Source: Lophium mytilinum | Taxonomy: Eukaryota | Reading direction: 5' to 3' | Assembly (NCBI GenBank): GCA_010093605.1 | Contig: MU004190.1 | Span: forward strand, 186,001 to 250,000 | DNA: 64,000 nucleotides | Notes under the pieces: generated by a model | The model's input: only the letters and a program-made list of their open reading frames with translations | Told to the model about the DNA's origin: nothing | Databases searched by the model: none | In this document: one piece after another, positions 50,677 through 53,080 of the stretch | Layout: each line of letters begins with the position of its first letter | How positions within the stretch are numbered: position 1 is the stretch's first letter | Made by a program: the position numbers and the translations under genes

Positions 50677-52017
50677 TCATGTCGTAGTCGCTTTTTCGTT
50701 ATCTGGAGGTGTGATCGTGGCATTCTCGTCCTTCTTCAGATTTGCGAGGCATGGTGCGTGAAAGAGTTTTCCGTCCCAAGCGCCTCTAGCGGTACCGATA
50801 GCGACTACAATCCAAAGCAAGATTACGGCAACACTGAAGATAGTGCCGAGGACCTTGAAAAACTGACTTGGCATCTGGTTTCCAAGTTCGATCGTGCTGA
50901 CCGCATAGACACCGAGAGGGAAGGTGAACCCCCACCACCCCATATTGAACGGAAACGGGCGAGATTTGTAGATCGACGCGAGAGCGAAAGCAAACCAGAT
51001 GAGGCCGAATCCCCACATAATAAGCGCCAAGAATACACCAAGGATGTATACAACGTCTCCTGCAACAGCTAAATCGTGGAAGAAGTGGACTTGAGGAAAG
51101 ACTTCTCGCGAGACTTTTCCGAGATACATTATCGTATAGCCGCCCATTCCAAGGGGACCAAGTGGCAGGAATGACGAAACCACAATCTCACGAGGAGGAA
51201 GTTTGTGAAGTGCCAGCCGTTGGTAGTAAATGACCAGAACTGTCATGGCCAGAGGAGTGGCCATACCCCACATTACATACGACGTGATGAGAGTTCCCAA
51301 TGCATGATCGGGATTCGGGAGCACCTCCGCAATCTCAGCACCGGCGCCAGCAGCAACAATAGTAGCTGCTATAGGCAGCAGCTGTGCAGCTGTGATGCGG
51401 TCCAGGGCTTGTTGATGAGATTGTGATATCAGAAGGAAGGTCAACGACACCGTAACAGCTCCAGCGACGATGCAGTCTATCATCCAGCACACCCAGGCAA
51501 ATGTAACTGCCCAAGGCCCCCAATAGGGGATGCAAAGAAAGATCCAACTTTCTACCAACGTAGCGAATCCCATTGGAAGAGTACCGAGAAAGAGCGAATT
51601 CGTACTGTCGTGGATCATTACCGTCCATATGGCGGGATAAAGCGTGTATCGGAGGATTGAAATGCCGAAAGCTAAAGCAAATAGCAGGGTGTTCAATGCA
51701 AAGAAGACCACAGACATCCAGTACAGCCAATCGCTCTGGAACGGGATGGTGATGAATAGTAAAGAAACAATCCCAGTGCCCATAGTAACGGAGAACCAGG
51801 AAGGGCTGAAATTCCGCACAACCCGTCGCCAGCCAACATCGTATTTAGTCACTTGATCCGGTGGAGGCTCCGTGATTACATCCTGCTCTCCCGAAGGATC
51901 TGAGGTCGTGGCATGGGGGTGGCGATGTGATGATCTCTGGCGAACCAGGCTTGGTGTAGATGCCAAAGCGGGCTTACCTGAAGCCAGGCGTGTGAGATCA
52001 TGATCAGAATCTTGCAT
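50677..52017 (-). CDS. TDT/SLAC1-family transporter (sulfite efflux/C4-dicarboxylate, SSU1-like)
   Basis: NFSPSWFSVTMGTG, SLFLGTLPMG, FLPLGPLG, FNMGWWGFTFPLG; about 10 transmembrane helices. Confidence 0.9.
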   Translation of the reverse strand: MQDSDHDLTRLASGKPALASTPSLVRQRSSHRHPHATTSDPSGEQDVITEPPPDQVTKYDVGWRRVVRNFSPSWFSVTMGTGIVSLLFITIPFQSDWLYWMSVVFFALNTLLFALAFGISILRYTLYPAIWTVMIHDSTNSLFLGTLPMGFATLVESWIFLCIPYWGPWAVTFAWVCWMIDCIVAGAVTVSLTFLLISQSHQQALDRITAAQLLPIAATIVAAGAGAEIAEVLPNPDHALGTLITSYVMWGMATPLAMTVLVIYYQRLALHKLPPREIVVSSFLPLGPLGMGGYTIMYLGKVSREVFPQVHFFHDLAVAGDVVYILGVFLALIMWGFGLIWFAFALASIYKSRPFPFNMGWWGFTFPLGVYAVSTIELGNQMPSQFFKVLGTIFSVAVILLWIVVAIGTARGAWDGKLFHAPCLANLKKDENATITPPDNEKATTT

Positions 52018-52613
52018 AGTGGTTGGGGCTCAGCTATAATCCAAGAAGTCACGTATAATAGAAGCGCAGATGAAAATCAATGATGTTGAAATTTGAGATC
52101 GGAGTCACGGATGTGGCCCACTTTGTAAGTGGTACAGAGAAAGTGGTAATTAAATTACTTCTATCGTAGGTAATCAGTGCCCTCCTTGAATATAGCCACC
52201 CGACTTAACCCCTTCTACACCCCCCTACATTGCCTCCCACTCGCTTTATTTACCGGTCTTGTCGTTGCTTTACTCTGATCCATAGGACTAATCCCCGGCG
52301 TAATCCAAACATGAACCTCCATGGCAATAGCGACGGGCCATTGGCATGCGCCACAACCGCTTATGGTCCTCCCTCTTTGCATTGCAGTCAATGGTGAAGT
52401 AGATAGACTGTTTCCTCAATTCGCCTCAAGTTCCGCGCCCCTCTTCCCTTATCGATTCTATCAGCACGTCTCAATGCCACGGACCAGCTTGCGGATTATG
52501 GCATTGCCGGTTTTACTTATCTTCATACCTTCCCATAATTAAGATAGAAAAAAAAAGCATCTTCGTGAAGAACACGACTTGTATAATAGCGGTATTAAAG
52601 AGCAAAGAGATGC

Positions 52614-52620
52614 AAAAAAA
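52614..52620 (-). terminator. Pol III oligo-T terminator of the tRNA-Ile gene
   Basis: T7 run on the minus strand 8 nt after the discriminator base; a second T run near 52548-52556. Confidence 0.8.
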
Positions 52621-52628
52621 GACAATTC

Positions 52629-52765
52629 TGGTCAGTACGGGGGTCGAACCCGCGACCTTGGCGTTAACATGTTGATATTAGCACCTGTGGTGGATTAGTA
52701 CAGGTGTTGGTTCATTCGAGGAAGGTGAACACATACCACGCTCTGACCAACTGAGCTAACCGACC
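52629..52765 (-). tRNA. tRNA-Ile(AAT) with two introns: 52-nt GT-AG intron (52685-52736) and 11-nt canonical intron (52665-52675)
   Basis: Spliced sequence GGTCGGTTAGCTCAGTTGGTCAGAGCGTG|GTGCTAATA|ACGCCAAGGTCGCGGGTTCGACCCCCGTACTGACCA folds into a full cloverleaf (acceptor GGTCGGT/ACTGACC, D stem GCTC/GAGC, anticodon stem TGGTG/CGCCA, T stem GCGGG/CCCGT); A and B boxes intact. Confidence 0.9.
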
Positions 52766-53080
52766 TGATTGGTTGAATTGTTGGCTCGTCAAAAATTTTC
52801 AGACTATAATGTGTCATTGCTCTACCCCTGTCCCTCCTTGCCATGGATGATACACAACCACAGCCATGGTCCATGTCAGTTTTCTCTTGGTACGGCTACC
52901 TACCATAATTTCAGGGTATCAGTGCCACGGTTTAGTAAGTCTCGACGCGGTCGGCAACGTTGCCTTTTATTCGCTACCGAAATTCCTTTTCCACCTACCT
53001 CAAACGTCCATTTTTCTTCTTCGTGCTCTTCTACTCTCCTCTTTCTCACACCGTCATCCTTCATCGATCATATCAAGACA

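Follow-up and report, generated by a model that had tools for sequence, protein, structure and literature searches.

Spliceosomal introns and tRNA introns are treated in textbooks as separate systems with separate substrates. The more recent papers that we consulted keep to this division: one from 2025 terms the two intron types unrelated (PMC12530127), and in the accessible portions of a 2023 review of tRNA processing the spliceosome appears as a contrast only (PMC10275265). Introns of the mRNA type are already known from some non-coding RNA genes, namely those of U6, U1, U2 and U5 snRNA and of rRNA (PMC5855946, where the U1, U2 and U5 genes of Rhodotorula and the rRNA genes of ascomycetes are cited as carriers). 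They are also found in fungal U3 genes, at positions that slide in Dothideomycetes (PMC5832005). The intron of Schizosaccharomyces pombe U6 (Tani and Ohshima 1989, 1991; cited in PMC5855946) is a precedent for a GT-AG, branch-site intron in an RNA polymerase III transcript. As to tRNA genes, those of Cyanidioschyzon merolae and of nucleomorphs have introns that are defined by a bulge-helix-bulge and cut by the endonuclease (PMC4090602, PMC3978253).

We report here on a nuclear tRNA-Ile(AAT) gene, found in a 64-kb stretch of DNA (the window), which carries a 52-nt insert of the spliceosomal type together with an 11-nt insert at the position usual for tRNA introns. The S. pombe U6 intron, as it is described in the portions of PMC5855946 available to us, resembles this case in lying in a small structured RNA gene, within a functionally critical conserved stretch, and in having to be removed to give a working RNA. 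It differs in that the host is now a tRNA, so that nearness to the spliceosome's active site cannot account for the insertion, in that the tRNA-Ile transcript has a second, endonuclease-type intron, and in that the inserts occupy many positions and are spread over several classes of fungi. With the introns of fungal U3, snRNA and rRNA genes, the long inserts share canonical signals, lengths typical of the host and interiors that diverge fast (PMC5832005, PMC5855946), and the sliding of U3 introns by a few nucleotides in Dothideomycetes is, on the account given in PMC5832005, the closest parallel. Those hosts, however, are transcribed by polymerase II or I, and none of them has two splicing machineries acting on a precursor of 137 nt. 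The tRNA genes of C. merolae and nucleomorphs, from what the two sources report, are likewise nuclear, split away from position 37/38, sometimes by several introns, and missed by standard finders (PMC4090602, PMC3978253). Unlike their introns, the tRNA-Ile inserts have spliceosomal signals and, in a loose fold test, no enrichment for the bulge-helix-bulge.

In 1990, Koehrer, Vogel and Domdey (EMBO J) are said to have had an engineered yeast pre-tRNA, containing the actin pre-mRNA intron, spliced via the pre-mRNA pathway. If so, a fungal polymerase III pre-tRNA can be a spliceosome substrate; the construct was artificial, and tRNA-Ile(AAT) would be its natural counterpart. No prior description of a spliceosomal intron in a tRNA gene was found in the literature searched, most subscription journals being outside its scope. 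A tRNA as the host of an mRNA-type intron, and two splicing systems on one precursor, would therefore appear to be new.

Anatomy and surroundings of the tRNA-Ile(AAT) gene

An earlier sequence-only reading had proposed a tRNA-Ile(AAT) gene at 52629-52765, interrupted by a spliceosomal-type intron and by a normal tRNA intron. A gene of this kind lies exactly there, on the minus strand: the Rfam tRNA model RF00005 aligned over its full length (1-71) with a score of 43.3 bits, against a gathering score of 29, and left 74 letters unaligned within the anticodon arm. The gene is 137 nt long with both inserts and 74 nt long without them. Its parts and flanking elements, all on the minus strand, are the following.

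52629..52765, minus strand: nuclear tRNA-Ile(AAT) gene (Rfam RF00005; ARAGORN tRNA-Ile(aat) once the inserts are removed)
52737..52765, minus strand: 5' exon, 29 nt, tRNA positions 1-28 (sequence; A-box/B-box scan)
52685..52736, minus strand: 52-nt spliceosomal-type intron at positions 28/29 (sequence, and homologous genes with the same kind of insert)
52676..52684, minus strand: middle exon GTGCTAATA, 9 nt, with the anticodon AAT (sequence, spliced alignment)
52665..52675, minus strand: 11-nt short intron at the canonical 37/38 position, in three equivalent frames (spliced alignment, related genes)
52629..52664, minus strand: 3' exon, 36 nt (spliced alignment, stem pairing, B-box scan)
52614..52620, minus strand: run of seven T, 8 nt past the end of the tRNA, at +9 (sequence)
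52804..52808, minus strand: TATA-like element TATAG, 43 nt upstream of the tRNA (a weak match from a loose motif list, used without a control)

The 5' exon comprises the 5' strand of the acceptor, the D arm, G26 and the first two nucleotides of the anticodon stem, with the A box at 52747-52758. The middle exon, GTGCTAATA, completes the 5' anticodon-stem strand with its last three nucleotides and extends through the loop as far as A37. The 3' exon continues with A38, the 3' anticodon-stem strand CGCCA, the variable loop, the T arm, the 3' strand of the acceptor and the discriminator A, and has an intact B box, GGTTCGACCCC, at 52640-52650, inside the T arm. Judged by its letters, the seven-T run looks like an RNA polymerase III terminator. 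The boxes and the oligo-T terminator had been read as intact, and so we found them.

The 52-nt insert starts with GTATGT and ends with CAG, and the A of its branch motif TACTAAT is 10 nt from the end, all as had been proposed. Its longest run of T is two, in keeping with the claim that it has no run of four. Because GGT is repeated at both ends of the insert, four frames of excision are equivalent, one of them being GT..AG. It lies outside position 37/38, and of the two inserts in this gene only the 11-nt one fits the canonical position of a tRNA intron. Removal of the GT-AG insert had been said to restore the TGGTG/CGCCA stem; with that insert taken out ARAGORN gives tRNA-Ile(aat), and with both taken out the product is a tRNA-Ile(aat) of 74 nt. 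The earlier description held in all respects that were checked. By our own arithmetic, about 1 in 100,000 inserts of a fixed 52 nt, read in four equivalent frames, would by chance combine GTRNGT and YAG with a CTRAY located 8-20 nt before the end.

Contigs from two DNA runs, which are probably the source of the window, contain this locus and one other. The second locus, a paralogous tRNA gene of nearly equal length, shows 3 differences from window positions 52629-52670 and 52746-52767, and between these segments 74 letters stand in place of the window's 75. The two middles gave no alignment at 80%. The flanks of the second locus are different, with a T run in the downstream one. Neither a joint skipping the insert nor a copy without it was seen among these same-genome contigs, which can show presence but not absence.

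The signals of the insert had also been likened to those of the mRNA introns in the window. This part of the reading is plausible: a regular expression GT..CTRAY..YAG gave 32 candidates in the window, several of them at the ends of open reading frames, and a single nearby intron is backed by a contig joint. This intron, at 52448-52528 and like the tRNA on the minus strand, is 81 nt long (GTATGA..GCTGAT..AAG) and lies 160 nt away. Eukaryotic proteins are encoded in the window, among them ones with diphthamide synthesis and dynamin domains.

Contigs from a putative RNA run include a spliced transcript, 52136-52577 on the minus strand, in which the 81-nt intron is removed and which starts about 50 nt downstream of the tRNA. 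Since another contig ends at 52046, this transcript is probably the long 5' leader of a SLAC1/Mae1-type transporter gene at 50677-52017. No contig of this run lies over 52611-52845, an outcome that speaks neither for nor against expression of the tRNA gene.

A recurrent class of interrupted tRNA-Ile(AAT) genes

Related genes were gathered in one scan of metagenome contigs for AGAGCG (D arm) followed, after a gap of 30-60 nt, by GCTAATA; the pattern did not demand GT or AG. The scan returned 108 loci, the majority being bacterial tRNAs matched by chance. A eukaryote-type tRNA-Ile(AAT) with an insert, of fungal origin, was present in 21 of the 108 loci, which reduce to 18 distinct genes once duplicates are joined (L063 with L029; L072 and L075 with L062). 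L108, where the pattern was absent under the regular expression, was omitted. L086 was excluded from the intact set as a truncated copy, and the window gene was added, giving 18 intact distinct genes. Insert boundaries were obtained by spliced alignment to the exon sequence of the window gene and then slid among equivalent frames; 22 boundaries came directly from the alignment, and the remaining 3, in genes whose exons deviate from the template, were fixed manually. By design, the scan detects inserts at positions 26-31 of one isoacceptor only, and gives neither a frequency nor a measure of generality.

The excluded copy (L086:300-683), either a truncated gene or a pseudogene, is a tRNA-Ile(AAT) sequence with a GTTAGT..TAG insert at 26/27. 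It stops after the T stem, where GGTT runs into a stretch of T.

The 18 intact genes contain 25 long inserts, eleven genes having one and seven having two, with lengths of 44-55 nt. All 25 inserts have GT..AG ends; chance as the origin of the splice signals is thereby removed. The 5' hexamers were GTAAGT (12), GTATGT (7), GTACGT (2), GTGAGT (2), GTATGA (1) and GTTAGT (1), so that GTNNGT fits 24 of 25; the one that departs from it, GTATGA, also begins the intron near the window gene that a contig joint confirms. The 3' ends were CAG (13), TAG (9), AAG (2) and GAG (1). A branch motif CTRAY was present in 21 inserts and the looser YTNAY in all 25, the branch A being 9-13 nt from the 3' end in 23 of them, typically at about 11 nt. 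In addition, a short insert of 8-28 nt interrupts position 37/38 in 16 of the 18 intact genes.

In tRNA numbering, the long inserts are distributed as follows.

Position 6/7: 2 inserts
Position 25/26: 3 inserts
Position 26/27: 1 insert
Position 27/28: 12 inserts
Position 28/29: 1 insert (the window gene)
Position 30/31: 1 insert
Position 54/55: 3 inserts
Position 57/58: 1 insert
Position 62/63: 1 insert

The crowding at 25-31 is an ascertainment artefact, no other region being visible to the scan pattern; the inserts away from it turned up as second inserts of the same genes. Inserts at nine positions make up a recurrent gene class, which is broader than the single gene of the initial proposal.

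That proposal had also asked for a test of whether the splice signals are kept while the middle of the intron diverges, and this was what the comparison gave. Long inserts in pairs of related loci have identities of 56-67%, the median for shuffled sequences being 50%, and the exons of pairs whose long inserts have diverged to near-random are 97-100% identical. L059 and L070, for instance, have inserts at 6/7 and 27/28 in common, which are merely 67% and 56% identical. The T-loop insert of the closest pair, L029 and L054, is an exception, with 85% identity. Over all 300 pairs of insert interiors, the median identity was 53%, versus 50% for shuffled sequences. No second copy of the 52-nt insert was found within the 64-kb window.

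An introner, or another multi-copy intron family, was considered and found no support in the sequence examined, that is, the window, the middle of the paralogue (below 80%) and the insert interiors with their median of 53%.

Once the inserts are removed, ARAGORN recognises a tRNA-Ile(aat) in 18 of the 18 intact genes. Each of the 378 stem cells, from 21 pairs in each of the 18 genes, forms a standard pair, and compensatory changes on both sides are seen at 7 pairs, two of which belong to the anticodon stem that the inserts interrupt. From these alignments, the spliced cloverleaf is shown to be under selection. A random insertion into a dying gene is excluded as a general explanation, because exons and splice signals are kept while the interiors diverge.

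Neighbouring protein genes give an indication of the hosts. The window's Dph2 shares 89% identity with its counterpart in Mytilinidion resinicola, followed among the named matches by proteins from other Dothideomycetes. In L070 and L059 the tRNA-Ile gene adjoins the gene for mitochondrial leucyl-tRNA synthetase, the two loci being syntenic orthologues, and the L070 synthetase is closest to Helotiales (Stipitochalara 71%, Hyaloscypha 67%). L029 adjoins a SelO gene for which the best named matches (68-69%) come from lichen-forming classes as well as from Leotiomycetes, and we place it no more finely than in Pezizomycotina. A weaker test makes L007 an ascomycete. These protein matches point to the involvement of at least two classes, Leotiomycetes and, with the window, Dothideomycetes. 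Genes for tRNA-Ile(AAT) with one or two such introns form a recurrent class in several lineages of Pezizomycotina.

Transcription and maturation of the interrupted genes

The best supported account is, with high probability, that of a functional nuclear tRNA-Ile(AAU) gene from a dothideomycete near Mytilinidion, belonging to this recurrent class, whose transcript would lose both a spliceosomal and an endonuclease intron. The spliceosome would remove the 52-nt intron, of U2 type (GT-AG, branch site), which splits the 5' strand of the anticodon stem. This insert is taken as a spliceosomal intron because no machinery other than the spliceosome is known to use GT together with a branch adenosine and AG, and the comparison strongly supports its reading as an intron of the spliceosomal type in a working tRNA gene. 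The tRNA splicing endonuclease and ligase would remove the 11-nt intron at 37/38. The spliceosome would likely act first and the endonuclease second, because the long intron blocks the anticodon stem that the endonuclease reads, and because the spliceosome is nuclear and the endonuclease of yeast, on the mitochondrial surface, cytoplasmic. In the unspliced precursor no cloverleaf fold was obtained.

As to the signs of transcription, the A box and an exact-match B box of the window gene are 108 bp apart, and in the genes with an unsplit B box the spacing ranges from 97 to 122 bp. The optimal spacing is 30-60 bp, which the interrupted genes exceed; this fits the account poorly. A run of at least five T is present within 40 nt downstream in 16 of the 18 genes. 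Inside the inserts, runs of at least four T occurred in 1 of 25, versus 4.8 expected from shuffles (P = 0.026), and runs of at least five in none of 25, versus 1.4 expected (P = 0.23), in both cases a weak depletion. A TATA-like motif is present between -17 and -47 in 13 of 18 genes, an observation of little weight given the loose list and the lack of a control. In L011, L029 (the same as L063), L054 and L073 the B box itself is split by a second GT..AG insert, in the T loop at 54/55 or 57/58, and apart from weak matches at chance level no substitute B box was found in these genes within 2 mismatches. In these fungi the promoter function may rest more heavily on upstream elements, or polymerase II may read some of the genes.

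About 100-150 nt downstream of the tRNA in L029/L063 and in L054, there is a partial tandem duplicate of the 3' part of the tRNA. It begins within the short intron; its T-loop insert has AT instead of GT at the 5' end, which marks it as a decayed copy.

From the A and B boxes, the downstream T runs and the few T runs inside the inserts, we infer that the long-intron tRNA substrate is an RNA polymerase III transcript. Such transcripts have neither the cap nor the polymerase II tail that normally aid the recruitment of the spliceosome, which counts against it. Alternatively, the spliceosome could act on a polymerase II transcript, with RNase P and RNase Z then freeing the tRNA from a spliced long precursor. 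The four related genes whose B box is split and without substitute would fit such a scheme, and the TATA-like elements upstream of 13 of 18 genes, for what an uncontrolled loose motif is worth, would do so too. The spliced transcript of polymerase II type that starts some 50 nt downstream of the window gene, on the same strand, would in turn mean that polymerase II is active nearby. Polymerase III of fission yeast, however, also uses upstream TATA elements, and the window gene has intact A and B boxes and its seven-T run 8 nt past the end. The T runs downstream of 16 of 18 genes and the T-poor inserts argue in the same direction, and we regard a polymerase II precursor as unlikely.

The two other explanations concern the nature of the insert. 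It could be a non-canonical tRNA intron cut by the endonuclease at a bulge-helix-bulge, with GT..AG a coincidence, and introns at such positions are indeed described in nuclear tRNA genes of red algae in the parts of the sources at hand (PMC4090602, PMC3978253). Against this, all 25 inserts combine GT..AG with 5' hexamers of fungal type and with a branch motif whose distance is fixed, features which are useless to the endonuclease. A loose fold test for the bulge-helix-bulge, in which the two cut sites lie in 3-nt bulges with a 4-bp helix between them, was passed by 2 of 25 inserts and 19 of 500 shuffled ones, hence no enrichment, although the same test fitted just 1 of 16 short 37/38 introns; we hold this origin for the least probable of all. 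Scarcely more credit can be given to the view that a random or transposon insertion killed one tRNA-Ile copy, and that intronless copies elsewhere do the work. Decay does occur in the family, as the truncated L086 and the partial duplicates with a spoiled 5' splice site beside L029 and L054 testify. A dead or dying gene would not be expected, however, to keep its exons 97-100% identical next to near-random inserts, all its stem cells paired with compensatory changes, and its splice signals in 25 cases of 25, nor is the insert repeated in the 64-kb window. The same-genome contigs, weak evidence since they show presence only, contain this locus and one with an equally long middle, and no insert-free copy.

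A broader proposition, to which we give even chances, is that filamentous ascomycetes have long and regularly made a tRNA with the help of the spliceosome, and that the window gene is no isolated accident. Transfer RNA genes would then take introns of the mRNA type at many positions, in the acceptor stem, the anticodon stem, and the T loop and T stem, where an insert may split the B box. RNA polymerase III transcripts would be routine substrates of the spliceosome. How much of the essential tRNA-Ile(IAU) is supplied would depend on how active the spliceosome is, and a single precursor would be handled in a set sequence by the spliceosome in the nucleus and the tRNA endonuclease in the cytoplasm.

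Detection of such genes and their use

It had been anticipated that standard finders would miss or miscall these genes, and they did. On the raw window ARAGORN reported no tRNA and, with introns allowed, the miscall tRNA-Ser(gct). Over 19 raw genes, it called none with default settings, and 2 correctly when introns were allowed. Rfam missed all seven intact genes with two long inserts, as well as the truncated L086. Within the 18 loci, Rfam matched the tRNA-Ile genes alone and no other tRNA gene, and a scan of the window and the 18 loci for further tRNA-like pairs of A and B boxes found none. The interrupted tRNA-Ile genes would expose a systematic gap in the annotation of fungal tRNAs.

A natural tRNA that depends on the spliceosome would join the few non-coding RNAs in which introns of the mRNA type are known, and would tie the decoding of AUU and AUC codons to splicing. 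It would offer a natural and essential polymerase III substrate for the study of spliceosome recruitment independent of cap and tail. Intron gain and sliding could also be followed cleanly in it, given an invariant host sequence and positions that differ by single nucleotides.

Two minor observations were made on the scanned loci. Among the bacterial-type loci, the tRNA match ends just past the anticodon arm in L014, L027, L050 and L074, in L017 and L092, in L057 and in L104, as if these genes were interrupted by an integrated element or an intron. In the fungal gene L026, whose own B box is intact, the 27/28 insert contains a B-box-like string, AGTTCGATACT, overlapping the branch motif. The string is reminiscent of fission-yeast U6, which has a B box in its intron, and may be a chance occurrence.
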